Shown here in pieces: positions 1-14,053 of a stretch of DNA of 64,000 nucleotides; within the stretch, counting starts at the first letter, position 1; each line of letters opens with the position of its first letter. A program made the translations under genes and the position numbers. Source of the DNA: an uncultured delta proteobacterium (GTDB lineage: Bacteria > Desulfobacterota > Desulfobacteria > Desulfobacterales > JAHEIW01); the NCBI GenBank assembly GCA_963706575.1, contig CAVPNL010000022.1, positions 1-64,000 of the forward strand. Direction: 5' to 3'. The notes under the pieces are model-generated. The model was not told the origin of the DNA and searched no databases. It saw only the letters and a list, made by a program, of their open reading frames with translations.

Positions 1-101
1 AGATAATTTTTGTTGACCGCGAAGATTCGGTTTTATATCTATCTTCAAATTCCCCTGGTAAAAATTAAATAAACCATTTCTCATTTGGAGCCCTCAAGTC
101 C

Positions 102-1028
102 ATGGCATCGGCATCTTCTAAAAAGGTCATCTTTGCAGCCTTAATCGGAAATTTTCTGATTGCGCTGACCAAATTCATCGCTTTTTTTATGACCAAAAGC
201 TCGGCCATGCTCTCAGAAGGGGTCCATTCGGTGGTCGATACCAGCAATCAAGTGTTGTTGCTTTACGGACTTCGCCGGGCAAAGCAGCCGGCAGATGTGC
301 AATTTCCGTTTGGGCACGGCAAGGAGGTCTATTTCTGGGGATTTATTGTTGCGATTATGATTTTTACCGTTGGCGCCGGGGTCTCCATTTATAAAGGGGT
401 TCACCACTTGCTGCATCCGGTACTCATCCAGAACCCGACCCTCAACTATATCGTGCTGGCCTGTGCCCTGGTGTTTGAAGGTGCGGCCTGGTATTTTGCC
501 CTGACCGAATTTAGAAAAGTCAAAGGCAGAAGGGGCTATCTCGAAGCAGTACATCGGGGTAAAGACCCCTCCATGTTTGTGGTGCTTTTTGAGGACTCAG
601 CCGCCATGCTGGGCATCCTGGTTGCTTTTGCCGGGATATTTCTGAGCCAGGTCACGGGAAATCCCGTTTACGACGGCGCTGCTTCTGTGGTCATCGGATT
701 GATCCTTGCCGGGACTGCGGCCTGGTTGGCCTATGAAATCAAAGGATTGCTGATTGGAGAGAGCGCCCACCCGGAGATTATCAAGGGGGTAAAAGAAATC
801 GCCAAATCCTACCCGAGAATCAAACACGTCAATGAAATTTTAACCCTGCATATGGGGCCGGATTTTATTTTGCTGAATTTAAGCGTCGACTTTGTCGACA
901 GCATCCTGGCCGGGGATCTTGAAGATACAATTTTAAGGCTGAATAGACACATCAAACAGACTTATCCTAAAATCAAACGCGTTTTTGTGGAGGCAGAGGC
1001 CAGGCGAGCGGCGCATACTGATATTTAA
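102..1028 (+). CDS. Cation diffusion facilitator (CDF) family transporter
   Basis: 308 aa with 6 TM segments; 'SAMLSEGVHSVVD', 'FPFGHGKE' and 'LFEDSAA' motifs typical of CDF proteins; C-terminal dimerisation domain. Confidence 0.92.
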   Translation: MASASSKKVIFAALIGNFLIALTKFIAFFMTKSSAMLSEGVHSVVDTSNQVLLLYGLRRAKQPADVQFPFGHGKEVYFWGFIVAIMIFTVGAGVSIYKGVHHLLHPVLIQNPTLNYIVLACALVFEGAAWYFALTEFRKVKGRRGYLEAVHRGKDPSMFVVLFEDSAAMLGILVAFAGIFLSQVTGNPVYDGAASVVIGLILAGTAAWLAYEIKGLLIGESAHPEIIKGVKEIAKSYPRIKHVNEILTLHMGPDFILLNLSVDFVDSILAGDLEDTILRLNRHIKQTYPKIKRVFVEAEARRAAHTDI

Positions 1029-1031
1029 ATA

Positions 1032-1222
1032 GCCACGGACCCCTCTTCGCTCTATCGAGCTTCGCTGCAGCGACGCGGCAGGCCCACACGGACTCACACA
1101 AACATTTTTGCCTCGCGGCCAAATGGCCTAATGGAGCGCTGCGCTTTAGGAGCACTTTGTTTTAGGAGCAGCCCTGCGGGCTTTGAGGTGGGAAAAATTA
1201 TCCGCAGATTACGCAGATTGAT
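1032..1222. repeat. Intergenic low-complexity 9-mer repeats (CCACGGAC/CACACGGACT/CACACAAAC; CGCAGATTA x2) with an inserted hairpin module
   Basis: gccacggacc-[cctcttcgctctatcgagcttcgc...gcggcaggc]-ccacacggactcacacaaac, and atccgcagattacgcagatt. Confidence 0.5.
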
Positions 1223-1276
1223 TAAAAAAATAAATCACAAAAATCCACTTATCGAGATAATTATCTGTATAATTTT

Positions 1277-1735
1277 CTAATAATTTTTTATTTCACGGTC
1301 TAAATCTCGCTGCTCATCGCGACGCTTGATGGCCTCGCGTTTGTCATACTTGCGCTTTCCTTTTACCAGGGCCAGCGTGATCTTGACTTTTCCGCTTTTA
1401 AAATAAAGCCGGAGGGGAATCAGAGTGTGGCCTTTTTCATTGACTTTGCCGTAGAGCCGCTTGATTTCATGTTTGTGCAAAAGCAGTTTGCGCGGCCTTA
1501 AAGGGTCGTGGTTGTCATAATAGGCAAAGGGATAGGGCGCGATGTGCAGCTGGTAAACAAACACCTCACCGTCTTTGATCCTGGCATAGGAGTCTTTTAG
1601 ATTTGCACGCCCCTGTCTCAGGGATTTTACTTCGGTACCCCTGAGAACCAGCCCGGCTTCGTATTCATCGACAATAAAATAATCCCGGCGGGCTTTGCGG
1701 TTCTGGGCGATTATTTTGATGTGTTCATTCTCCAA
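1277..1735 (-). CDS. smpB: SsrA-binding protein SmpB
   Basis: 'NRKARRDY', 'EAGLVLRGTEVKSLR', 'HDPLRPRKLLLHKHEI' and 'KGKRKYDKRE' signature motifs; TTG start. Confidence 0.98.
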   Translation of the reverse strand: MENEHIKIIAQNRKARRDYFIVDEYEAGLVLRGTEVKSLRQGRANLKDSYARIKDGEVFVYQLHIAPYPFAYYDNHDPLRPRKLLLHKHEIKRLYGKVNEKGHTLIPLRLYFKSGKVKITLALVKGKRKYDKREAIKRRDEQRDLDREIKNY

Positions 1736-1744
1736 TTTTGGTTT

Positions 1745-1778
1745 CCAATACCCAATACCGAATACCCAATACCCAGTA
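1745..1778. repeat. Heptamer tandem repeat (CCAATAC)x4-5 between ptsI and smpB
   Basis: tccaatacccaataccgaatacccaatacccagtat. Confidence 0.8.
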
Positions 1779-1789
1779 TTTTTTGCCTA

Positions 1790-3553
1790 TCACCCGGAGT
1801 ACAATTGCTCTGCCAGAATGCTGCCGTAGGTATCCTTTATGAGCTCAAACGTACTTTTGGCCGTGGTCTGCTTGAGGACCTCCTTCATAAAGGAACGGGT
1901 ATCCGCAACATTCAAGGACCGGATAACCCGTTTGATATCCGGAATGGATTGCGGGTTCATGCTGAGCTCATCCATTCCAATGCCCAATAAGAGCGGGATG
2001 TGATGGGGGGTGCCGGCCATTTCGCCACACATAAAGATCTTTATGTTTTTTTCCCGGGCCACGTCGGCGGTATGCTTGAGCATGCGTATAATGGCCGGAT
2101 CGAGGGGCTGAAACAGGTGGGCGACCTGCTCATTGCCGCGATCGATGGCCAGGGCGTACTGAATCAGATCATTGGTCCCGATACTGAAAAAATCGACGTT
2201 TTCAGCAATGACGTCCGCCATGATCACTGCCGAAGGCACCTCTATCATGGCACCGGTTTCAATATCACGGTTATAGGGCAGGCCGTCTTTCTCCAGCGAT
2301 TCGGCGGCTTCGTCCAGCATCCGATTGGCTTCGCGGATTTCAAAATAGGTTGATATCATCGGAAACAAAATTCGGGTGTTGCCAAATGCGGCCGCTCTGA
2401 GAATGGCTCGAAGCTGATCTTTAAATACCTGGGGTTTTTTAAGGCAATAGCGGATGGCGCGCATTCCCAGGGCCGGATTGGCTTCCTCAGCGCTGAATTG
2501 ATTGTTTAAAGCCTTGTCTCCATTGATGTCGAGTGTTCGGATGGTGACCGGTTTCGGGTGCATGGCCTCAATGACATCTTTGTAGTTATCAAAAAGTTCA
2601 TCTTCGTCGGGAAAATCAGGACGGTTGAAATATTGAAACTCGGTGCGGTAAAGACCGATTCCATCACCACCATAATTCAGCAACGCAAACACTTCCTCCG
2701 GAAGCTCGATGTTGCCCATAACCGCCAAACGAACCCCATCTGCCGATTCAGCCGGCGCTTTGCTCTCGCTGGTGATGACAGCCTTGTAATCCTCGTAATC
2801 GATTTTACGCTCTTCATACCGGACCAGGGTTTCTTCGGCGGGCCGGATGATGACTGTACCGCTATTGCCATCCACAATGATGAGGTCATCACTGCGAATC
2901 GATGCCATGGCGGTTTTCAGCCCGACAACAGCGGGTATTTCAAGGCTGCGCGCGATAATGCCCGTATGAGATGCTTTGCCGCCGCGATCGGTAATAAAAC
3001 CCATCACCCGTTCAAGATTGATCTGGCAGGTTTCAGCCGGTGTCAGGTCATGGGCAACCAGGATGACGCGCTTGTCGATTGCAGCGATATTGACCTTTTT
3101 CGTACCCACCAGGTTGTGCATGATGCTGTCGGCGATCTGAACGACATCAACTGAGCGCTCCTTTAAATACGGGTCTGTCATGGTCTGGAAAACTTCTATC
3201 AGGTTCGATACCACTTTTTTCAGCGCCCACTCGGCATTGACGCTTTCCTGCTTGACGGTCTCGATGGTGCGGCCATACAGCATTTTATCCTTGAGCAAGG
3301 CCATATGGGTTTCAAGGATGTGGGCATGCTGCAATTCTTCGGGGCTTTTTTCGACAATTTTACGCAGCTCATCCTTGGCATTTTTTACCGCCGCTTTGAA
3401 CCGTTTGACCTCATTGGATAGCTCTTTGTCTTCGATGCGGTATTTTGGGACAACCTCGACGCCTTCGCTGTCAACCAGGTAGGCCTTTCCAATGCAGATC
3501 CCCGGAGAGGCGTTGATTCCTTTTATGATTATTTCTTGCGCTTCTGTTTCCAT
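1790..3553 (-). CDS. ptsI: Phosphoenolpyruvate-protein phosphotransferase (PTS enzyme I)
   Basis: 'GGKASHTGIIARS' phospho-His motif, 'GIGLYRTEF', 'NPALGMRAIR', 'DFFSIGTNDLIQY', 'CGEMAG'. Confidence 0.97.
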   Translation of the reverse strand: METEAQEIIIKGINASPGICIGKAYLVDSEGVEVVPKYRIEDKELSNEVKRFKAAVKNAKDELRKIVEKSPEELQHAHILETHMALLKDKMLYGRTIETVKQESVNAEWALKKVVSNLIEVFQTMTDPYLKERSVDVVQIADSIMHNLVGTKKVNIAAIDKRVILVAHDLTPAETCQINLERVMGFITDRGGKASHTGIIARSLEIPAVVGLKTAMASIRSDDLIIVDGNSGTVIIRPAEETLVRYEERKIDYEDYKAVITSESKAPAESADGVRLAVMGNIELPEEVFALLNYGGDGIGLYRTEFQYFNRPDFPDEDELFDNYKDVIEAMHPKPVTIRTLDINGDKALNNQFSAEEANPALGMRAIRYCLKKPQVFKDQLRAILRAAAFGNTRILFPMISTYFEIREANRMLDEAAESLEKDGLPYNRDIETGAMIEVPSAVIMADVIAENVDFFSIGTNDLIQYALAIDRGNEQVAHLFQPLDPAIIRMLKHTADVAREKNIKIFMCGEMAGTPHHIPLLLGIGMDELSMNPQSIPDIKRVIRSLNVADTRSFMKEVLKQTTAKSTFELIKDTYGSILAEQLYSG

Positions 3554-3562
3554 TGGGTCCGT

Positions 3563-3847
3563 TTATTCCCCGAATCCGCTTTCAACCAATTCCGTGATGT
3601 CGTCTAGAATACTAAAATCGGATTTATTTTCGATGCGAATGGTAATTTTTGTGCCTTTTTCACAGGCCAGGGTCAAAATATCCACGATGCTGGATGCATC
3701 TGCTTTATCGTCACCTTTTTGTATCCAGACCGAAGCCGTTGACCGATTGGCGAGTTCGGCTATTTTGGCGGCCGAGCGCGCGTGCAAACCGAATTCGTTT
3801 ACGATAGTGACTTCTCGGGACAGGGCTGGCTTAAATTTACTCATCAA
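3563..3847 (-). CDS. ptsH: HPr family phosphocarrier protein
   Basis: 'GLHARSAAKI' (His15 motif) and 'DASSIVDIL' (Ser46 region); adjacent to ptsI. Confidence 0.95.
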   Translation of the reverse strand: MMSKFKPALSREVTIVNEFGLHARSAAKIAELANRSTASVWIQKGDDKADASSIVDILTLACEKGTKITIRIENKSDFSILDDITELVESGFGE

Positions 3848-4003
3848 TTATTACTTGAATCTTGCATGAAAAGTCATGAGAAGTTTGTATTATGTTTAAT
3901 GACAGCATGTTAAGCAAGTTATAATTGTAAAGGGACTGTCAATTTAAATTAAAAGGATGATAATCATTTTATCTCATTACTTTTCACCCTTAAAACAACG
4001 CGG

Positions 4004-4100
4004 CGAGCCGGAGGCTTCCATCTGCTGCGTTATTAAGGCCGAAGCATAGTTCACTATAGCTTCGCCCTTAAGTGCCTTGCATATGAAAGCCTCCGACTCG
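4004..4100. repeat. Long imperfect palindrome (nested hairpin), REP/MITE-like
   Basis: cgagccggaggcttccat pairs with atgaaagcctccgactcg; inner stem taaggccgaagcatag-ttca-ctatagcttcgccctta. Confidence 0.7.
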
Positions 4101-4175
4101 TGCAAAATCCAAGTCTATATTCAATTAAAATTTTTGCAAGTTATCAAAATTTCAATATATGTCAATTTGAAAACA

Positions 4176-4204
4176 TTGACAAGACAGGAATTGGCTGTTA
4201 AGGT
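4176..4204 (+). promoter_or_regulatory. Putative sigma70 promoter for the selenoprotein gene
   Basis: TTGACA(4176-4181)-N17-TAAGGT(4199-4204). Confidence 0.45.
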
Positions 4205-4252
4205 TTTGCTGGTTTTGATCACAACTATTTGAAATTAATATAGAATAATAAC

Positions 4253-4407
4253 TAGAACCCATCTTAAAAAGGTGGATTAGGGTTCAGGGCAAGGCGCAAA
4301 CCGATTCGAAAGTCGTTGTTCCGAGCATACACGGTCGTATGTGAGCATTTTGAATTGGTTAGCAACACCGCCATGGACACTTAGACGCATTTTTAAGATG
4401 GGTTCTA
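4253..4407. mobile_element. MITE-like element, 155 bp, perfect 18-bp terminal inverted repeats beginning and ending in TA
   Basis: TAGAACCCATCTTAAAAA (4253-4270) and TTTTTAAGATGGGTTCTA (4390-4407); non-coding interior with hairpin gcatacacggtcgtatgt. Confidence 0.75.
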
Positions 4408-4436
4408 ATCACCCTTTAAATCCGGAGGATCGAACC

Positions 4437-4664
4437 ATGTCTGAAAAAATATTGATTTTCGGCAAAGATGCCTGACCTTACACCAGGGCAGCTCGTGAAG
4501 CTTATGCCAAACAGAATAAGGATGTTGAATATCTCAACGTTAAATCGGATCCCAAACAACTTGATGTCATGCTGAAACATTCCAACGGCGCGCGCAAAGT
4601 TCCGGTGATTGTTGAAGGTGGAGACGTTACCATTGGTTTTGATGGCGGGACATGAGGGGTTTGA
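4437..4664 (+). CDS. Glutaredoxin-like selenoprotein with two in-frame UGA codons (UXX-star-type), 75 aa
   Basis: SD GGAGGA 4424-4429, ATG 4437; MSEKILIFGKDA-U-PYTRAAREAYAKQNKDVEYLNVKSDPKQLDVMLKHSNGARKVPVIVEGGDVTIGFDGGT-U-GV*; TGA at 4473-4475 in the CPYx active-site position and at 4653-4655; Grx 'VP' cis-Pro and 'IGF' motifs. Confidence 0.88.
4487..4508 (+). promoter_or_regulatory. Putative bacterial SECIS element for the first UGA
   Basis: GGCA-GCT-[CGTGA]-AGC-tta-TGCC hairpin starting 11 nt after the UGA. Confidence 0.55.
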
Positions 4665-4690
4665 TTTTTTCAGCAGTTGGCTGAAAAAAT
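4664..4690 (+). promoter_or_regulatory. Hairpin after the second UGA: SECIS and/or terminator
   Basis: ATTTTTTCAGC-[AGTTG]-GCTGAAAAAAT perfect 11-bp stem. Confidence 0.5.
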
Positions 4691-4930
4691 TAGTTATTGG
4701 TTATTCGTTAATGATTTCTCGTTCTCTGCTGCTGGCTCCTTGCTTCTTGCTGCCATCTGAATCAGTGACCAGTAGCCAGCAGCCCATTATTCTCTTGACT
4801 CAAGTGCAGATACATTATAGCTAAATCACTTTAACTATAATTCGTTCAACCAGATGAATTTAATTCATATTTTTTATATTCTGATGATTGGCAAGAGAGC
4901 CGGTCTCAATATTGGACGCGTGTGTGTTTG

Positions 4931-5692
4931 ATGGCGACTTTAAACGTTAACGACGTCACCCTTTCATTTGGTGGCTTAAATGCACTGAGTGAGGTGTCCC
5001 TGACGATTGAACCGGGACTGATCACCTCGATTATCGGCCCGAACGGGGCCGGCAAAACCAGCCTGTTGAATTGTATTTCCGGTTTTTATCATCCCACAAA
5101 AGGCGGGATCTTTTACGGCGACCACAACCTTTCCAAAGCGTCTCCGCACCAGGTTACCAGCCTGGGAATTGCGCGTGCCTTTCAGAATATCGAGTTATTC
5201 AGCGGCATGACGGTCCTGGACAATCTGCTGCTGGCACGCCATCAGAACTTGAAATACAATATATTTCAAGCCGTTTTCTATTCCGGCAAGACATCCGCTG
5301 AGGAGGCTAAAAATCGACAATATGTCGAGGAGATCATCGATTTCATGGAGCTCGAACCGTATCGCAAAAAAACGGTCGGCAGCCTCAGCTACGGTATCCA
5401 AAAAAGCGTTGAGGTCGCGCGGGCGCTGACCCTGGGTCCGGATTTGCTTTTGTTGGATGAACCCATGGCCGGTATGAATATCGAAGAAAAAGAAGATATG
5501 GTGCGCTTTGTAATGGACATTCAGAAAGAACGCCATACCACCGTGGTGCTGGTCGAACACGACCTGGGCGTTGTGATGGACATATCCGACCATGTATACG
5601 TACTCGACTTCGGAGAACTCATTGGCGCCGGCCAGCCCGATGAGGTCGCTAAAGATCCAAAAGTCGTTGAGGCCTATATTGGGGAAGAATAG
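4931..5692 (+). CDS. Branched-chain amino acid-type ABC transporter ATP-binding protein (LivG-like)
   Basis: Walker A 'GPNGAGKT', 'LLLDEPMAG', 'VEHDL', C-terminal 'DPKVVEAYIG'. Confidence 0.92.
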   Translation: MATLNVNDVTLSFGGLNALSEVSLTIEPGLITSIIGPNGAGKTSLLNCISGFYHPTKGGIFYGDHNLSKASPHQVTSLGIARAFQNIELFSGMTVLDNLLLARHQNLKYNIFQAVFYSGKTSAEEAKNRQYVEEIIDFMELEPYRKKTVGSLSYGIQKSVEVARALTLGPDLLLLDEPMAGMNIEEKEDMVRFVMDIQKERHTTVVLVEHDLGVVMDISDHVYVLDFGELIGAGQPDEVAKDPKVVEAYIGEE

Positions 5693-5697
5693 TTAGC

Positions 5698-7626
5698 ATG
5701 GCAGGCAAAGACGACATACTGAAATATACGATTCCGCAGCTGTTGCGCTGGCGGGTTAATGAGACCGGCGACAAAGTCGCTCTGCGTGAGAAAGAATTCG
5801 GGTACTGGAACAACTACACCTGGAACGACTTTTACGACCGCGTGCGCAAAATCGCCCTTGGGCTCGAAAAGATGGGCCTCAAAAAGGACGACAAGCTGGC
5901 ATTGATCGGCGATAATATTCCCGAGATGTTGTTCATGGCCATTGGGGCCCAATCCATCGGCGCGATTTCAGCCGGGATTTATCAAACCAGCCTGCCTGAT
6001 GAGATTGCCGAACTGATCAATTATATGGACGTGACGGTCGTTTTTTGCGACGACCAGGAGCAGGTGGATAAGCTGGTTGAAGTCCGGGACCAGATTCCCC
6101 AGGTGCGCAAGGTGATATACGAGGACCCGCGCGGCATGCGCGACTACCGATCCGACGACTGGTATCTCTTTATAGAAGATCTCTATGAAATGGGCGCTGC
6201 GGCTTATGCTGAAAACCCTGAAAAATACGACGCCTTGATTGACCAGGGAAGCCCTGACGATGTTTGCCACTTTTGTCTGACCTCCGGTACTACCGGGCTG
6301 TCCAAAGCCTCCATGATGACCCATAAAAACTACGTCAACATGGGCATTCAGATCACCAAGGTCGACAAACTATCGGACACCGATGAATATCTCTCCTTTC
6401 TACCCTTTGCCTGGATCGGAGAGCAGATGAACTCCTTCGGCGTGGCCATGGCCACGGGGATCACCATCAACTTTCCGGAGTCGGTTGAAACCAGCATGGA
6501 GGATCTCAAGGAGATCGGGCCTCACTTTATGTTTGGTGCGCCCAGAATCTATGAAACCATACGCTCTCAAATTTGGCTCAAGATCGATGAATCTTACTGG
6601 CTCAACCGCTTTCTTTACGGAAAATTCATTAAGATCGGGGAGAAGGCCGCCCGCTATCGGATGAGCGGCGAACGGATGCCGGCATCCCTGCGTTTCATGG
6701 CCTGGCTGGGAAAGATTATGGTTATGGATCCGCTGATCAACCAAATCGGGCTGCGCAGGCTGCGGCGGGCCTATACCGGAGGTGCGGCCCTCGGGCCCGA
6801 GCTGTTCACCTTTTACCAGGCCATCGGCGTCAATTTGAAGCAGATTTACGGCCAGACCGAAATTACCGGCATCGCCTACATGCATCTTGACGGTGACGTT
6901 CGGCCGGATACAGTGGGCAAACCGCTGCCGGAGACCGATTGCAAAATCAGCGAGCAGGGAGAGATTCTGTCGCGCTCCCCTTCGGTTTGTGCGGGCTATT
7001 ATAAGCTAGACGAGCAGACCGAAGAGCTGCTGGAGGGGGGATGGCTCCATTCCGGCGACGCCGGATACATTGACGAACATGGTCACCTGGTCGTGATCGA
7101 CCGGGTTTCCGACGTCATGCATAACAGCAGGGGCGAGATGTTTAGCCCCATGTTTCTGGAAAACAAGCTCAAATTCAGTCCATACATCAAAGAGGCTGTC
7201 ATTTTCGGCGATAAACGGGATTTCGTGGCTGCGCTGATCAACATCGACCCCATCGTGGTCGGCAAGTGGGCCGAAGACCGGGGGATTTCTTTTACCACCT
7301 ACATGGATCTTTCCAATAATCCGGAGGTGGCGGAGCTGCTCCAGGAGGCCGTGATCGATATCAACGCGCGTGCGGAAAAAGATCATTTTAAAATCAAACG
7401 CTTTGCGGTGTTGTATAAACTGCTGGACATGGATGACGGCGAGCTGACCAAAACCGGCAAGATACGCAGAAAATTCGTCATGGAAAAGTACCAAGATCTT
7501 TACGATGCCCTCTACGATGAAAGCGTCAGCAAGAAGAAGGTCGAAGCCTTTTTCCAGTATCAGGATGGCCAGACCACCACCGTAGAGGCCGAAATGGCGT
7601 TTTATACAATGGAAGGGATTGCATGA
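5698..7626 (+). CDS. Long-chain fatty acid-CoA ligase (AMP-binding)
   Basis: 'TSGTTGLSK', 'YGQTE', 'GWLHSGDAG' and 'ELTKTGKIRR' adenylate-forming motifs. Confidence 0.92.
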   Translation: MAGKDDILKYTIPQLLRWRVNETGDKVALREKEFGYWNNYTWNDFYDRVRKIALGLEKMGLKKDDKLALIGDNIPEMLFMAIGAQSIGAISAGIYQTSLPDEIAELINYMDVTVVFCDDQEQVDKLVEVRDQIPQVRKVIYEDPRGMRDYRSDDWYLFIEDLYEMGAAAYAENPEKYDALIDQGSPDDVCHFCLTSGTTGLSKASMMTHKNYVNMGIQITKVDKLSDTDEYLSFLPFAWIGEQMNSFGVAMATGITINFPESVETSMEDLKEIGPHFMFGAPRIYETIRSQIWLKIDESYWLNRFLYGKFIKIGEKAARYRMSGERMPASLRFMAWLGKIMVMDPLINQIGLRRLRRAYTGGAALGPELFTFYQAIGVNLKQIYGQTEITGIAYMHLDGDVRPDTVGKPLPETDCKISEQGEILSRSPSVCAGYYKLDEQTEELLEGGWLHSGDAGYIDEHGHLVVIDRVSDVMHNSRGEMFSPMFLENKLKFSPYIKEAVIFGDKRDFVAALINIDPIVVGKWAEDRGISFTTYMDLSNNPEVAELLQEAVIDINARAEKDHFKIKRFAVLYKLLDMDDGELTKTGKIRRKFVMEKYQDLYDALYDESVSKKKVEAFFQYQDGQTTTVEAEMAFYTMEGIA

Positions 7627-8516
7627 GTTATTTTTTTCAACTGGTGGTCAGTGGGATTGTTGTCGGCTCTATCTATGCGCTTTCCGGGCTCGGATTTGTC
7701 CTGATTTATAAATCCAGCCGTGTGCTCAATATTGCCCATGGACAATTCATTGCCCTGGGTGCTTTTATTACGTACGCACTGACGGTGGGGCTGCACATTC
7801 CCATCTACATTTCATTTTTGCTAAGCACGGTCATTACCTTCCTGGTCGCCATGAGCGTGGAACGCATCTTTTTGCGCCGCCTGATCGGTGAACCGATTAT
7901 ATCGGTGATCATGGTCACCATCGGACTGATGTCCATACTTGACGGGCTCATCTATCTGACCCCGTTTGGAACGGAAAATTTCTCCTTTCCGGAATTTTTG
8001 CCGAAAGCGCCGATCACCGTGGGCGGGGTTTCGATTTCCTGGACCCAGTTTGTGGGCGTTATTATTACGATCATATTGATTGCCGGCTTTTCCTGGTTCT
8101 TTAAAAAATCGACCCTGGGCATATCCATGCGTGCGGTTTCGGATGATCAAATGGCCTCGATGTCCATCGGGATTTCTATCCCCAGAGTGTTCGGTCTGGC
8201 CTGGGCGGCCGCCGGTTTAAGCGCCGCCGCCGCCGGGGGCATCATTGCCAATATTACCGGGTTGAACTTCGACACCCTGGTTTCTTTTGGTATTATCGTA
8301 TTTCCCGTGGTGATTCTCGGCGGGCTGGATTCGATTTTCGGCGCGGTGGTCGCCGGTATCATCGTGGGGCTGATTCAGCAGTTTGCCGCCGGATACCTGG
8401 ACGGTCTCTGGGGCCTGTTCGGCACCGCCGACCTGGTGCCCTGGTTTATCCTTTTGATCATTTTATTAATCAAACCTCACGGTCTTTTTGGCATCCATGA
8501 AATTGAACGGGTCTAA
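7623..8516 (+). CDS. LivH-like ABC transporter permease
   Basis: 'GSIYALSGLGFVLIYKSSRVLNIAHG', 'GISMRAVSDD'; multi-TM. Confidence 0.92.
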   Translation: MSYFFQLVVSGIVVGSIYALSGLGFVLIYKSSRVLNIAHGQFIALGAFITYALTVGLHIPIYISFLLSTVITFLVAMSVERIFLRRLIGEPIISVIMVTIGLMSILDGLIYLTPFGTENFSFPEFLPKAPITVGGVSISWTQFVGVIITIILIAGFSWFFKKSTLGISMRAVSDDQMASMSIGISIPRVFGLAWAAAGLSAAAAGGIIANITGLNFDTLVSFGIIVFPVVILGGLDSIFGAVVAGIIVGLIQQFAAGYLDGLWGLFGTADLVPWFILLIILLIKPHGLFGIHEIERV

Positions 8517-8519
8517 GTT

Positions 8520-9614
8520 ATGGCGCAGAATCGTTGGCTGGCAACCGGTAATTTTTTCGCATCGCACAAGCAGGAGCAGCGTATCTTTTTTACGCATCTG
8601 GACCGGTTGATCTTTACATGCTTTTTGGTTTTGCTGTTTGTCTGGCCGCTTTTTTTTGAGCTCGGCAATAAAAACATGCTGGTGATCGACAATATTCTGG
8701 TTGCCATTATTGCGATTTACGGGTTAAACCTGGTGACCGGTTATGCCGGCCTGATTTCCATCGGGCATGCCGCTTTTGTCGGTGTGGGGGCTTACACCCT
8801 GGCGACCTTTGCGCGATTGCTGGGGGACAGCCATGTGTTGCTGACTCACGCCTGGCCGTTGATGATCCTGATTTGTGGTGCGGTGGGTGCCGTGATCGGC
8901 GCCTTTGTGGGCTTGCCGGCATTACGGCTGAAACATCTATACCTGGTGATTGCCACCCTTTCGTTTCAGATGATCTTCCAGTGGGTCATCAATTTTTCGA
9001 AGTTTTTTAATCAGGGCCAAACGATTGCCATCGGCCGGGTATTCTGGTTTGCCGGAGAAGTGACCCGCAGCCAGCATTATTTATTCTGGTATTATATCGC
9101 CCTGATATTTGTAGTGATTTTTGGATTTTCAGTCCGCAATTTGCTGCGAACCCGTTACGGACGGTGTTTGGTGGCCGTGCGCGACAATGACCGCGCCGCC
9201 GATGCCATGGGCATGCACCCCGGATTTACCAAGGTGTATGCATTTGCGCTGGCCGGGTTTTTTGCCGGTGTCGCCGGAGCACTGCACGCCTACCTGTGGC
9301 GCGGAGTGGGCTTTGAATCCTTTACGCTGCACCACTCCATCAACTATCTGGCCATGGCGATTGTGGGCGGATTGGGCAGCCTGATGGGCTCATTTTTGGG
9401 GCCCGCGGCGATTTTCATGCTGGATGTCCAGGTCGAGCACCTTTCTGAATTTGCCAAAACGTTGTTTCCGGCGGCGCTGGATCTGGCGACGGCGCTGCGC
9501 CCGCTGTCATTTGGTCTGGTAATCGTGCTGTTTTTGATGTTTGAACCGCGGGGTATCGCCAACTGGTGGCGGATTTTGCGGTCCTATTTAAAACTCTGGC
9601 CGTTTCGTTACTGA
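8520..9614 (+). CDS. LivM-like ABC transporter permease
   Basis: 'GLNLVTGYAGLISIGHAAFVGVGAY', 'GLPALRLKHLYL', 'AVRDNDRAA'. Confidence 0.92.
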   Translation: MAQNRWLATGNFFASHKQEQRIFFTHLDRLIFTCFLVLLFVWPLFFELGNKNMLVIDNILVAIIAIYGLNLVTGYAGLISIGHAAFVGVGAYTLATFARLLGDSHVLLTHAWPLMILICGAVGAVIGAFVGLPALRLKHLYLVIATLSFQMIFQWVINFSKFFNQGQTIAIGRVFWFAGEVTRSQHYLFWYYIALIFVVIFGFSVRNLLRTRYGRCLVAVRDNDRAADAMGMHPGFTKVYAFALAGFFAGVAGALHAYLWRGVGFESFTLHHSINYLAMAIVGGLGSLMGSFLGPAAIFMLDVQVEHLSEFAKTLFPAALDLATALRPLSFGLVIVLFLMFEPRGIANWWRILRSYLKLWPFRY

Positions 9615-9797
9615 GTTTGAATATATTACCATTGGCAGCACTAAATGCCGATTGAAAAACCGCTTTTTGGTGACGGCCCTAAACCTTGAATTAGTATTAG
9701 AGAAATCGTATATAAAGCATAATTCTGTGCACAAAATGTTTGAGTATGAAGTTGATTTCATAAATTAAAAGCTCAAAACGAAAGGAAGGAGAAAAAA

Positions 9798-11120
9798 ATG
9801 AACATGTCCCAAAAATTGTTATCTGTCACAACGGTTATCTGTCTTGCACTTTTCGTGTTTGCCTGCGGTGAAGGTGAAAAAGTAGCCGGTCTCGAGAAAC
9901 AAATTGAGCAGCTTTCCAGCGAAAAAGCAGAATTGCAAAATCAAGTCTCAGCTTTAGAAGGAAAAGCCGCCAAATCAGCAGGAGGGCAAACCATTAAAAT
10001 CGCCTCCTCGCTGGCGATTACCGGAACCACTTCCGATGTCGGCAACCCTTATTCAAAAGGCATCGAAGACTATGTCAAGTATGTTAACGATGAGAAACTG
10101 CTGGGCGATAACCAGTTGGTCGCCACTGTCAGAGACGACGGCTATAAAACGGAAGTGACCAAGCGTAATTTCGAAGAGTTTCTGGATGACGGCATCGTGC
10201 TTTACCTGAACTACTCGACCGGCAGCACACTGGCCCTGGGAAAAGATTTTGATGAAGAAATGATTCCGGTGATTACCGCTTCCTTCCACGCCGGAAATCT
10301 GGCCGCAAAATACGTTTTTCTGCCGATCGTTTCCTATTCCAGCCAGACAATTGCCTTGTCGGAATATATTGCGAACAATCATAAGGGCGGCGGGAAAGCT
10401 AAGATCGCCATGTTCATCCATCCTTCCGCCTTCGGTCGCGGACCGGTGGAAGACACCCAAAAGGCAGTGGCTGAGGGTCTGAACATCGAAATCGTTGAAG
10501 TGGTCGAGCACGGCAAGGATCTGGATAACACGGCAATGCTGCAACGCTTCTTAGATAAAGGGGTGCAGTACGTCCTGTCCCATACTGTCCAGCCACCGGT
10601 GGCAACCATGCTGAAAAGCGCTCAGAGCCTCGGGGTGGCTGCTAAAACATACGGCGAAGAGGGCAAGTTGACCTTTCTTGGGGTTCACTATTCCGGGGGG
10701 CCGGATTTGATCGCCCTGGCGGGTTCGGCCGCCGAAGACTTTTACTGGACCACCTCTTACAAGCTGACAACGGCTCCGGGTCCGGGAACCGACGCCCAAC
10801 TGGCGCTGGCCAAACGTTACGGCCGGGATGAAAAAACGGCAAATTCCCAGAACTACACCAACGGGATTCAGGTGACCCAGATTGCCGTTGAAGCCATGCT
10901 GCGCGCAAAAGCCAAAGGCAAGGAAATTACGCGGGCGGCACTTTACGATGAACTTCTGGCAATGAACGGTTACAATGCCTATTATCCGCTGACCACAGTG
11001 GGGCCGGTCTCTTTTTCCGAGAACGACCGCCAGGGTGTTGATCAACTGCAGCTCTATCGGGCTCAAGGCGGTGTATTCAATCCGGTCGGGGCGCCGTTTA
11101 CCTCGAAATATATCAAATAA
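9798..11120 (+). CDS. ABC transporter substrate-binding lipoprotein (LivJ/K-like, PBP type 1)
   Basis: Lipobox 'FVFAC', strong SD; 'TGTTSDVG', 'DDGYKTE'; located in the LIV operon. Confidence 0.88.
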   Translation: MNMSQKLLSVTTVICLALFVFACGEGEKVAGLEKQIEQLSSEKAELQNQVSALEGKAAKSAGGQTIKIASSLAITGTTSDVGNPYSKGIEDYVKYVNDEKLLGDNQLVATVRDDGYKTEVTKRNFEEFLDDGIVLYLNYSTGSTLALGKDFDEEMIPVITASFHAGNLAAKYVFLPIVSYSSQTIALSEYIANNHKGGGKAKIAMFIHPSAFGRGPVEDTQKAVAEGLNIEIVEVVEHGKDLDNTAMLQRFLDKGVQYVLSHTVQPPVATMLKSAQSLGVAAKTYGEEGKLTFLGVHYSGGPDLIALAGSAAEDFYWTTSYKLTTAPGPGTDAQLALAKRYGRDEKTANSQNYTNGIQVTQIAVEAMLRAKAKGKEITRAALYDELLAMNGYNAYYPLTTVGPVSFSENDRQGVDQLQLYRAQGGVFNPVGAPFTSKYIK

Positions 11121-11189
11121 CCGATGCCGCCTGTAAAAAGGTGGCTGTCGGAAAGCATTCGTTATTCGTTCAAACGCCAAGGTGCGTTT

Positions 11190-11240
11190 GGCAAAAACTT
11201 GCCGGCGGGCGGTGGGATGCCGCCTGCCGGCAGATTTGCC
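11190..11240 (+). other. Intercistronic GC-rich stem-loop after the substrate-binding protein gene
   Basis: ggcaaa-aact-tgccggcgggcgg-tgggatg-ccgcctgccggca-ga-tttgcc. Confidence 0.55.
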
Positions 11241-11308
11241 GTTATTCTTGTAGCGGCATGCATTGGCCATTATTTTTTTCTGAAATTTCCTCGGGAGACT
11301 TTGGCGAA

Positions 11309-12130
11309 ATGGCAACCCAGGATACCAACTCAATTTTGCTGGATGTCAACAACATTGAAGTTGTTTACAATGACATCATTCAGGTTCTGCGCGGGGTCAG
11401 TCTGAATGTGCCGCAGGGCGGTATCGTGGCTTTGCTGGGCACCAACGGCGCCGGCAAGACCACAACGCTGCGGGCCATCAGCGGTTTGCTAAAGCCTGAA
11501 AACGGATTCATCAAGGATGGCTTCATCAAGTTTCGCGGCAAAGATATTACCAACCAATTGGGGACGATGGTTGTAAAAGAGGGTGCCGTAATGGTGCCTG
11601 AAGGGCGCCGGGTGTTCAAGCATCTGACGGTGGATGAAAACATCCGGGTCGGATCGATCACGCGCAGCGAGGGGCAGGCCGGTATCCGACAGGATCAGAA
11701 GTTGATGTATGCGCACTTTCCGCGTTTGTCCCGGGTGACCAACCGGCTGGCCGGCTATTGTTCCGGCGGCGAACAGCAGATGATTGCCATTGCGCGCGCC
11801 CTGATGTCGGCCCCCAAAATGCTGATGCTGGATGAACCCTCTCTCGGCCTGGCGCCTTTGCTGGTCAAAGAGATTTTCGAAAACATCCAACGCATTAATC
11901 AGGACATGGATACCACCATCCTGCTTGTGGAGCAGAATGCCAGGATGGCGCTGGAGATTTCAAATTATGCCTATATCATGGAATCCGGCAAAATCGTTTT
12001 GGAAGGTCCTTCCGCCGAGCTAAAAAACAATCCGGACGTGAAGGAATTTTATATGGGGGTTACCAAAGGCGGTCGCCGCAAATCCTTTAAAGACGTAAAA
12101 TCTTACAAACGGCGCAAACGCTGGATGTAA
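11309..12130 (+). CDS. LivF-like ABC transporter ATP-binding protein
   Basis: 'GTNGAGKTT', 'VPEGRRVF', 'SGGEQQM', 'LDEPSLGLAP'; start moved to ATG 11309 after GGGAG. Confidence 0.92.
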   Translation: MATQDTNSILLDVNNIEVVYNDIIQVLRGVSLNVPQGGIVALLGTNGAGKTTTLRAISGLLKPENGFIKDGFIKFRGKDITNQLGTMVVKEGAVMVPEGRRVFKHLTVDENIRVGSITRSEGQAGIRQDQKLMYAHFPRLSRVTNRLAGYCSGGEQQMIAIARALMSAPKMLMLDEPSLGLAPLLVKEIFENIQRINQDMDTTILLVEQNARMALEISNYAYIMESGKIVLEGPSAELKNNPDVKEFYMGVTKGGRRKSFKDVKSYKRRKRWM

Positions 12131-12173
12131 ACGGAACCACCGCCAAATGCGGTGGTGGTTAGTGAGGTGCAGC

Positions 12174-12566
12174 ATGAAATTTCTGGTCGGCTACAATGGC
12201 TCTGTCGAAGCCAGAGCGGCTTTGTCATTGGCAAGGGATTTCGCAAAAATATTCAATGCCAGAGTTTTTGTGATGGCATCCATGGAAGGCGGTGCCGGGG
12301 AAAAAATCGAAGATATTACTCAGGCTGAACAGAACCTGAGAGAAGCAAAGGAATTTTTTGAGGAGCAGGGTGTTGAATGCGAAACCCATCAGCTGGCCAG
12401 AGGCCTTGCGCCCGGAGAAGACCTGGTAAAATTCGCTGAAGAAAATCAGATCGATCAAATTTATGTCGGAATTGAAAAGAAATCCAAGACCAGCAAGTTA
12501 TTGCTCGGGTCTACGGCTCAATATGTGATTTTAAAAGCGCCCTGCCCGGTAATTACGGCCAAATAA
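12174..12566 (+). CDS. Universal stress protein (UspA family)
   Basis: 'KFLVGYNGS', 'LLLGSTAQYVILKAPCPV'; SD GAGGTG before ATG 12174. Confidence 0.92.
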   Translation: MKFLVGYNGSVEARAALSLARDFAKIFNARVFVMASMEGGAGEKIEDITQAEQNLREAKEFFEEQGVECETHQLARGLAPGEDLVKFAEENQIDQIYVGIEKKSKTSKLLLGSTAQYVILKAPCPVITAK

Positions 12567-12912
12567 GCCATCGTAATTTTAGGATTTGATTATGGGCATC
12601 ACCGAGCTTCCCCTGTTGGAGGATGGATCAGCGGATCGGGCTCAAATCAAAGCGCTTTACGGCGGTCCGCAGGAATAATGGCATGGCGCAAAGCGTTAGA
12701 ACCGATAGTGGTGATAGAAAAAAGGTAAACCGATATTTCTTATCGATGTCGTTTTGGATTTTTCCACTGATCTCATGATCTCTTACCTCAATGATGGTTG
12801 ACTTCAACTCTTAATTCTCCTATATGTTCACACTTAGTGCTTTTAGCCTTTCTTAAGTTACCTGAAAATAAACGAAATATAAAATCGCGCAGCGATTTAT
12901 AAGGAGAAGATA

Positions 12913-13392
12913 ATGGTCAGAACCGAAATTTCACTTTTTTTGAAGAATGTGCCGGGTGAGCTCGGCCGGCTGGCAACCATGTTCGGAGAAGCCGGCATAA
13001 ACATCGATGCCCTCACGATACAGGATGCGTCTTCCTATGTTCAGGAGCTTTTTAAGGCCAGAGGAAAATCCCTTAAGCGGATTGCTTCGGCTGCCAGTTA
13101 TAATTCCATGCGCAAAGATTCGGCCGAATTTGCCCTGATTCGCCTTCTGGTCGGCGATACGGACAAGGCCGTCGACCTGCTGGCAAAAAATGATTTTATT
13201 TTTGATGTGATGCCGGTCATTGCCCTCGAACTCGAAAACCGGGCAGGCGAATTGGCAAAAATATCCTCAAAATTCGGCGAAGAGGGAATCAATATCAATT
13301 ATGTGTATGGATCGGTTTCCTCACCGGATGAGAAATGTCTTTTTGTGTTTTGTCCGGAGGATATTGAGCAGGCAGCAAAGATATTCAAGTGA
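12913..13392 (+). CDS. ACT domain-containing protein (two ACT domains)
   Basis: 'ISLFLKNVPGELGRLATMFGEAGINI' and 'LENRAGELAKISSKFGEEGININYVY'. Confidence 0.88.
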   Translation: MVRTEISLFLKNVPGELGRLATMFGEAGINIDALTIQDASSYVQELFKARGKSLKRIASAASYNSMRKDSAEFALIRLLVGDTDKAVDLLAKNDFIFDVMPVIALELENRAGELAKISSKFGEEGININYVYGSVSSPDEKCLFVFCPEDIEQAAKIFK

Positions 13393-13408
13393 AGACAGAA
13401 GTCAGATA

Positions 13409-13939
13409 TCAGCACGCCTGATCCATTTTGAAGGTCTTCATCAGGATGCTGGATCCAATCATATTGGTACCGTGTACCAGGGCATCCATAATATCGCTGT
13501 CTGTCCATCCATGATCATGCAGTCTTTCCATATCTTGCTTTTCAATAGCATCCGCTGATTTGATCGCCTTCATCACAAAGGACACCATCGCCCGGTCCTT
13601 ATCGTCCAATGGTGCCTGGAGAGGATCTTTTTCCATCTTTTCGATATCCTCGTCCGATAAGCCCTGCACCTTCAACATTTTCCTGTTGAAGCCGGTGCAG
13701 AAAGCGTAGTCGTATTGTTGCGCCACCAGATAACGTATACTGGAAAGCAGCCCGAACCCTAGCTTCGAATGCCGGGAAAAATACTGAATTGAGTTCCAAA
13801 CCATGTCCAGCATCCAGGGGCTGGCGCTTGCCAGCTGCAGCGGAGCGGGAATTACGCCGGCATTTTTCTGCATGAAGTCATAAATCTCCTTAACTTTACC
13901 TTCGGCGTTATCGGGTTCGACCGTTTGTATGAGAGCCAT
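13409..13939 (-). CDS. AhpD/carboxymuconolactone decarboxylase-like protein
   Basis: 'IQTVEPDNAEGKVKEIY', 'YAFCTGFN', 'GWTDSDIMDA' pattern of AhpD-like helical proteins; SD AGGAG. Confidence 0.7.
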   Translation of the reverse strand: MALIQTVEPDNAEGKVKEIYDFMQKNAGVIPAPLQLASASPWMLDMVWNSIQYFSRHSKLGFGLLSSIRYLVAQQYDYAFCTGFNRKMLKVQGLSDEDIEKMEKDPLQAPLDDKDRAMVSFVMKAIKSADAIEKQDMERLHDHGWTDSDIMDALVHGTNMIGSSILMKTFKMDQAC

Positions 13940-14053
13940 TGTTTTCTCCTTTGCAGTAATTACAGATATTATGTCCGGGGTTCAAGGTTCCCCCCTTCGC
14001 CTTTATGGCTATGGCGCGGCGAAGGCCCGACACCTGAAACCTGTATTAAGTTG

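Follow-up and report, generated by a model that had tools for sequence, protein, structure and literature searches.

An unannotated UXX-star family 1 gene in an uncultured delta proteobacterium, with two in-frame TGA codons that very probably encode selenocysteine

Positions 4437 to 4664 of the window (the whole stretch of 64,000 nucleotides that was analysed) contain an unannotated member of the catalogued UXX-star selenoprotein family 1. Two of its 75 codons, at positions 13 and 73, are TGA, and both very probably encode selenocysteine (Sec). A preliminary description of this DNA had read the two codons in the same way, and that reading is supported by the family score, by the selenocysteine machinery of the genome and by the codons found in homologues. 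The features of the gene are as follows.

4424 to 4429, plus strand: Shine-Dalgarno sequence GGAGGA, 7 nt 5′ of the ATG (4437 to 4439), identified from the sequence
4437 to 4664, plus strand: UXX-star selenoprotein family 1 gene, 75 amino acids followed by a TGA stop; 115.1 bits with NF041114 (cut-off 72)
4473 to 4475, plus strand: TGA codon 13, likely Sec, opening the U-P-Y-T active-site motif; of 93 genes, 90 have TGA here and 3 have Cys; aligned to Cys13 of the glutaredoxin in PDB entries 7c10 and 7c12
4653 to 4655, plus strand: TGA codon 73, likely Sec, within the tail motif U-x-x-stop (G-G-T-U-G-V); TGA in 93 of 93 genes
4662 to 4664, plus strand: true stop TGA (codon 76); TAA in 47, TGA in 35 and TAG in 11 of 93 genes, with conservation of 0.20 beyond it

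Family assignment and homologues

The preliminary description held that the open reading frame track had missed a tiny gene, and this was borne out: the 75-codon frame is absent from the standard list (at least 60 amino acids, window positions 1 to 14000), and the gene is real by its profile scores. The protein obtained by reading through both TGA codons matched Pfam Glutaredoxin with 37 bits (cut-off 22.9), the Uxx-star subfamily NF041212 with 89.3 bits (cut-off 66) and NF041114, the model of UXX-star selenoprotein family 1, over the whole profile (1 to 70); the NF041114 score was still 106.6 bits when the protein was ended at the second TGA. Because the read-through protein exceeds the Pfam Glutaredoxin and NF041114 cut-offs, the gene is not a product of chance. 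The UXX-star assignment, also made earlier, was confirmed by the NF041114 score. The read-through protein fell below every cut-off of the other 11 families listed. It scored 55.2 bits with UXX-star family 2 (NF041211, cut-off 100), 52.4 bits with family 3 (NF047338, cut-off 97) and 46.4 bits with the HUGP/GUXX-star fusion (NF045501, cut-off 325); the resemblance to these families and to the NF041212 subfamily is that of a short glutaredoxin-like domain with a tail Sec. Scores with the classical glutaredoxin model TIGR02181 (36 bits, cut-off 90) and the NrdH-redoxin model TIGR02194 (28.6 bits, cut-off 85.75) were also low, and the motif is UPYT rather than CPYC or CPYS, and UxxT rather than CxxC.

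All of the features of family 1 are present, namely UxxT (U-P-Y-T, residues 13 to 16), two Sec codons and a U73-G-V-stop tail, and no difference from the family was found. The tabulated part of a 2026 review (PMC13188914) already lists a 'Distant Grx-like protein 1' with the motif UxxT and two Sec residues, and the two-Sec state is therefore not a new feature; the review cites Haft and Tolstoy 2025 for related families. Literature searches turned up no biochemical work on this family, whose double selenoprotein is common, although Haft and Tolstoy 2025 may treat its mechanism. The phrase 'distant grx' is absent from the main text of PMC2398784, a text search of PMC13326102 gave no match, and the passages of the Haft and Gwadz preprint that were consulted do not mention the family.

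A genome scan gave 266 relatives, of which the best 80 were used (mostly Desulfobacterales by title, with a few from other phyla). The 107 loci correspond to 93 distinct genes, including that of the window, and these genes are kin rather than independent samples. The gene is ordinary for its lineage, with a match over the family 1 cut-off in 27 of 41 related genomes (its own genome counted); in a sample of the phylum, matches above the wider NF041212 cut-off were present in 67 of 301 genomes. Purine-rich runs were seen by eye 5′ of the start at most homologous loci.

Homologues had been expected to carry Cys or TGA at positions 13 and 73 and to remain conserved past the first TGA, and both expectations held. 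Sec or Cys is kept at both positions in all 93 genes with a spacing of 55 to 60 residues (60 in 83 genes), residue 16 is Thr in every one of them, and the U-x-x-stop spacing of the tail is the same throughout the genes as parsed. In a 73-row alignment the mean frequency of the modal residue was 0.72 for residues 1 to 12, 0.69 for residues 14 to 72 and 0.77 for residues 74 and 75, and it fell to 0.20 over the 12 codons past the stop (92 genes). Lys10, Arg53, Val55 and Pro56 are invariant in this alignment. A chance open reading frame or a pseudogene is ruled out by the profile scores, the pattern at codons 13 and 73 and the conservation through both TGA codons. The TGA at 4662 to 4664 is a true stop because the same position varies among the three stop codons, and a third Sec at this site is ruled out by the TAA or TAG found there in 58 of the 93 genes.

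Trp was assigned to codon 13 in 119 of 120 homologues among those listed in public gene calls, and many more distant homologues are annotated as ending at the tail TGA. We infer that the Trp calls stem from the gene caller choosing code 4. The Trp reading is rejected, given that relatives carry Cys at both places and that the genome has the selenocysteine machinery. It is because the public gene calls get it wrong that the gene matters for annotation. The Cys/Cys forms, P0136, P0193, P0198 and P0204, all score above the NF041114 cut-off and come from 14 sequences chosen by eye among 150 listed distant representatives. Contigs from RNA libraries, derived from relatives about 90% alike, span most of the gene in two of four runs and list no difference at the first TGA; as contigs, they cannot show transcription and are not proof of expression.

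Beyond family 1 the arrangement of the redox residues varies. The related Uxx-star proteins L120 to L122, L124, L126 and L127 have a complete CxxC in addition to the tail Sec, and the tail Cys or Sec is missing in some family-level relatives (for example, L133). L143 and P0153 are CPFC variants with a short insertion ahead of a tail ending in Gly-Gly, which may lengthen the arm that carries the tail Sec. The members of the HUGP/GUXX-star fusion family (NF045501) that were seen carry CxxC as well as a PF09719 domain at the N-terminus, both absent from the protein described here; five intact-looking loci (L120, L122, L126, L127 and L136) consist of an H-U-G-P/PF09719 domain joined to a Uxx-star domain with CxxC and fit the NF045501 description, and L128 is an apparently frameshifted PF09719 fusion. 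A search for longer forms containing a fused family 1 domain gave 10 matches among 7999 candidates scored. Six longer proteins were examined, four of those 10 together with P0231 and P0217, and the four resemble read-through or mis-called starts. P0231 joins an ArsR/SmtB helix-turn-helix regulator to a Uxx-star domain with CPYT and ends where the tail TGA is expected.

SECIS-like hairpins and the host genome

At the level of sequence, a SECIS-like hairpin of the kind expected in bacterial selenoprotein genes lies just after each UGA.

4490 to 4502, plus strand: SECIS-like hairpin 1, within the coding region; 4-bp apical stem, loop 4494 to 4498, from 18 nt past the first TGA
4661 to 4693, plus strand: SECIS-like hairpin 2, over the stop codon and 3′ UTR; loop 4675 to 4679, from 19 nt past the second TGA

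The folding energy of hairpin 1 alone, computed on the single sequence, is not significant (z −1.39). Synonymous codons in this region are constrained. In all 90 Sec genes Arg20 is encoded by CGT or CGG, which make up 65 of the 208 Arg codons found elsewhere in these genes, and Ala19 by GCT or GCC, which make up 121 of the 210 Ala codons elsewhere. This constraint preserves a short stem whose loop, N-G-K-N-N, starts 18 nt past UGA13. The combined pattern GCY-NGK at Ala19-Arg20 occurs in 100 of 100 genes with Sec13 versus three of seven with Cys13; this count adds 14 family-1-like genes from 29 phylum loci, and because the pattern was derived on the first set, a p-value from it would be overstated.

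Hairpin 2 folds with z −3.75 over 4653 to 4720, and the signal is weaker in longer windows. A hairpin with the same type of loop and a stem of at least 5 bp is found in 81 of 92 genes versus seven of 267 downstream control stretches. Pairing was seen in 91.4% of the cells of a 48-row alignment, with two-sided changes at all seven pairs; this level was reached by none of 500 shuffles, and slid controls gave 24 to 47%. The 48 rows are the window and 47 of 80 loci, and the exclusion of near-duplicates and of loci with a differently placed hairpin favours the result. A search of Rfam gave two weak matches far below the gathering score and no match to a SECIS model.

We also considered that one or both TGA codons are true stops and that the gene is broken or truncated. 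Hairpin 2 is terminator-like by score as well, and this together with the insignificant energy of hairpin 1 would suit such a reading; it is possible that hairpin 2 serves as both recoding signal and terminator. The conservation through both TGA codons, the Cys residues in relatives, the selenocysteine machinery, the codon constraint and the covariation make true stops extremely improbable. The evidence at the codon level for two recoding hairpins is an addition of the present work.

The genome is 91.8% complete with 6.4% contamination. The preliminary description had predicted selA, selB, selC and selD elsewhere in the genome, and all are there: profile searches found selA (604.8 bits), selB (376.5 bits) and two selD genes, all over their cut-offs, and a tRNA-Sec is present on contig C3. 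The gene at 4437 to 4664 is the only one in the genome above the Uxx-star cut-off. Each of the selD genes (G000:C5:349796 and G000:C3:439886) has an in-frame TGA at the active-site position, and the profile match of the C3 copy is split into two pieces. In the region G000:C15:118432-122500, a tRNA-Pyl is followed by four open reading frames that, by eye, we take to resemble pylS, pylB, pylC and pylD, and the genome appears to use pyrrolysine as well as selenocysteine.

In this 91.8% complete genome there was no match to gshA (PF04262) and none above the cut-off to gshB (TIGR01380); because of that level of completeness, the missing genes are not proof that glutathione is absent. Two thioredoxin reductase genes exceed the cut-off, and there are further thioredoxin reductase-like genes, two of them with N-terminal redoxin-like domains. 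A glutaredoxin-domain/thioredoxin reductase fusion lies at G000:C6:255442-256657, where the reductase match occupies two frames near the end, owing to a frameshift or an assembly error. A small glutaredoxin-like gene with a C-S-H-C motif (G000:C15:303945-304151) is followed by an open reading frame that we guess could be a ferredoxin-thioredoxin reductase-like subunit.

Predicted structure and candidate mechanisms

An AlphaFold model was built on the 73-row alignment with Cys replacing Sec. It has a pLDDT of 88.3, with an ordered tail block at 86, and adopts the NrdH/glutaredoxin fold with four strands and two helices, the last helix being missing. The closest solved structures are BC3987, the Clostridium oremlandii selenoprotein glutaredoxin 1 and NrdH (Z 9.7 to 10.4, rmsd 1.5 to 2.0 over 65 to 67 residues); Z scores of 9.7 to 10.0 to 4fiw, 1h75 and 4hs1 mark the fold as glutaredoxin-like, as in NrdH-redoxins. 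Residues 72 to 75 aligned to none of the 50 structural matches listed.

The C. oremlandii protein (7c10, 7c12) ranks first among PDB entries by sequence (E 8e-4; Z 10.2 to 10.3) and shares the catalytic Sec at residue 13. It differs in having a U/C-P-H-C motif with a resolving Cys inside the motif, a third helix and no tail Sec, and the identity is about 25%. It is the proposed reductant of MsrA, according to the parts of PMC7642778 and PMC4479559 that deal with it. NrdH-redoxins and BC3987 share the fold over model residues 4 to 70 (Z 9.7 to 10.4), with Gly-Phe at the position of the GG-kink; they have a CxxC, which is absent here, and no nrd gene was judged to be among the recurrent neighbours of the 93 loci. 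We take NrdH-redoxins and BC3987 to be thioredoxin reductase-dependent glutaredoxin-like proteins, with which the title of the 1h75 entry agrees.

In the model there is no helix past residue 48 that would complete the glutathione site after the GG-kink, and the chain ends at residue 75. DSSP assigned strand or bridge at residues 54 and 55, 68, 71, and 73 and 74. In a control model lacking residues 71 to 75 the assignments at 54 and 55 and at 68 were lost, and for this reason the tail is predicted to bridge to the cis-Pro loop. The simplest reading is that residues 68 to 71 form a turn and residues 73 and 74 pair with Lys54-Val55, which would lay the tail on the loop before cis-Pro56; this pairing is deduced from the DSSP letters of the two best models, which carry Cys for Sec. 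In glutaredoxins, the Cys of glutathione pairs through its backbone with the residue preceding the cis-Pro. The cis-Pro loop and the helix following it form the glutathione-scaffold site, as described in the relevant section of PMC5382279. Our tail-deletion model makes the idea of a tail in this groove directly testable.

The hypothesis that we favour, at roughly even odds, is that the protein is a glutathione-independent redoxin in which the tail Sec, lying in the glutathione groove, resolves Sec13, and in which thioredoxin reductase recycles the diselenide. Each UGA would be decoded by SelB with the help of the hairpin that follows it. The invariant Lys10 would activate Sec13, which might then attack a protein disulfide or similar oxidised group; PMC5382279 states, in its treatment of this residue, that a Lys three residues ahead of the catalytic Cys activates that Cys. 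Sec73, at the position that glutathione takes in true glutaredoxins, would free the substrate and leave a Sec13-Sec73 diselenide, whose formation in the family 1 protein is plausible and has indirect support from the two models. It would thereby assume the role of the second Cys, which is missing here (Thr16). Re-reduction could be carried out by one of the thioredoxin reductases of the genome or by another low-potential donor. The retention of Sec or Cys at 13 and 73 together with Thr16 in all 93 genes, and the existence of Cys/Cys forms, would fit a pairing of the two chalcogens. The lack of gsh matches, the two thioredoxin reductase genes and the structural likeness to NrdH-like redoxins and to the C. 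oremlandii protein are also in keeping with this mechanism. The tail is not merely a substitute for the second Cys, since CxxC relatives retain the tail Sec. Several observations count against this mechanism: position 73 retains selenium more strictly than position 13, the tail Sec persists in relatives with CxxC, some relatives are without a tail Cys or Sec, and no likely partner gene is conserved next to the gene. Diselenides are hard to reduce.

More generally, and with somewhat less than even confidence, we suggest that family 1 proteins are enzymes of the glutaredoxin fold in which the last helix is replaced by a tethered Sec-Gly tail that mimics glutathione at the cis-Pro loop, and that they cycle through a Sec13-Sec73 diselenide as self-contained, all-selenium redoxins for anaerobes lacking glutathione. 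If the tail is indeed a built-in glutathione, the protein would represent a small, naturally occurring redoxin built around an intramolecular diselenide, which could be examined with the 75-residue protein and its natural Cys/Cys relatives.

Alternatively, Sec73 might be an outward-facing catalytic arm, as in large thioredoxin reductases, which attacks the substrate, swings back and is reduced through Sec13. The tail is Gly-rich, with a Sec near the C-terminus as in the arm of those enzymes, and the invariance of TGA at codon 73, where codon 13 may be Cys, suggests that selenium matters more at the tail. The CxxC relatives with a tail Sec suit a relay from CxxC to tail, and because a swinging arm also needs contact between 13 and 73, both AlphaFold models fit it. 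Yet large thioredoxin reductases have a flavoprotein body and a Gly-Cys-Sec-Gly tail, in which Cys and Sec are neighbours (PMC6155587, in the passage on the mammalian tail), whereas the protein here has no flavoprotein body, its Sec is third from the end, and in none of the 93 tails is Sec73 flanked by Cys. The analogy to the thioredoxin reductase tail drawn in the preliminary description is thus weak. The UxxT core, moreover, has no second thiol to complete the relay, and the tail is modelled as ordered, and we think that an outward-facing arm is unlikely.

One could also envision a chaperone or a detoxification protein in which both selenols serve as ligands for a soft metal or metalloid (Hg, As or Cu). 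In its section on UXX-star proteins, the review (PMC13188914) allows that their Sec may be a metal-binding ligand or may bind unknown substrates, and the ArsR/SmtB fusion P0231 would fit such a role; P0231 is, however, a single sequence among the 150 listed and falls below the family 1 cut-off (63.8 of 72). No metal-resistance cluster stood out among the recurrent neighbours of the 93 genes, which were judged mostly by eye, and Pro56 is invariant, a cis-Pro that precludes metal binding according to the title of one paper. We therefore consider metal binding improbable.

A further scenario is a small selenium-dependent peroxidase in which UxxT is peroxidatic and Sec73 resolves. Peroxidases of the selenium-dependent type usually have a distal resolving residue. 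The top matches in both sequence and structure are nevertheless all glutaredoxin, NrdH or glutathione S-transferase domains, with no stand-alone Prx or GPx fold among the matches listed, and a peroxidase seems quite improbable, even though UxxT is also given for glutathione peroxidase-like proteins in the table of PMC13188914.

Genomic neighbourhood and adjacent elements

The gene is divergent from ptsH-ptsI-smpB, which lie on the opposite strand; these three were found in the clusters of 47, 61 and 31 of the 93 loci, respectively, in flanks of 1.5 to 3 kb that were often cut. We read this association as conserved gene order in kin and not as a functional link. Downstream genes vary between loci, a LOG-like gene being present in 32 of 93, and across the 93 loci no gene for a reductase, a peroxidase or a substrate is conserved nearby. 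A promoter scan gave four sites versus 2.8 expected. In the window, genes of a branched-chain-type ABC transporter lie downstream in a cluster (4922 to 12130) that also contains an AMP-binding gene resembling those of acyl-CoA ligases.

Two repeated elements lie on the 5′ side of the gene. The first (4004 to 4100) is an imperfect 42-nt inverted repeat element, REP- or MITE-like, with four near-full-length blastn matches in the genome (itself included) at 80 to 100% identity. The second (4253 to 4407) has terminal inverted repeats, ends 30 nt ahead of the start codon and is likely a small mobile element; it has 55 blastn matches, 13 of them long, and is matched by many RNA-library contigs, with loose ends at its borders.
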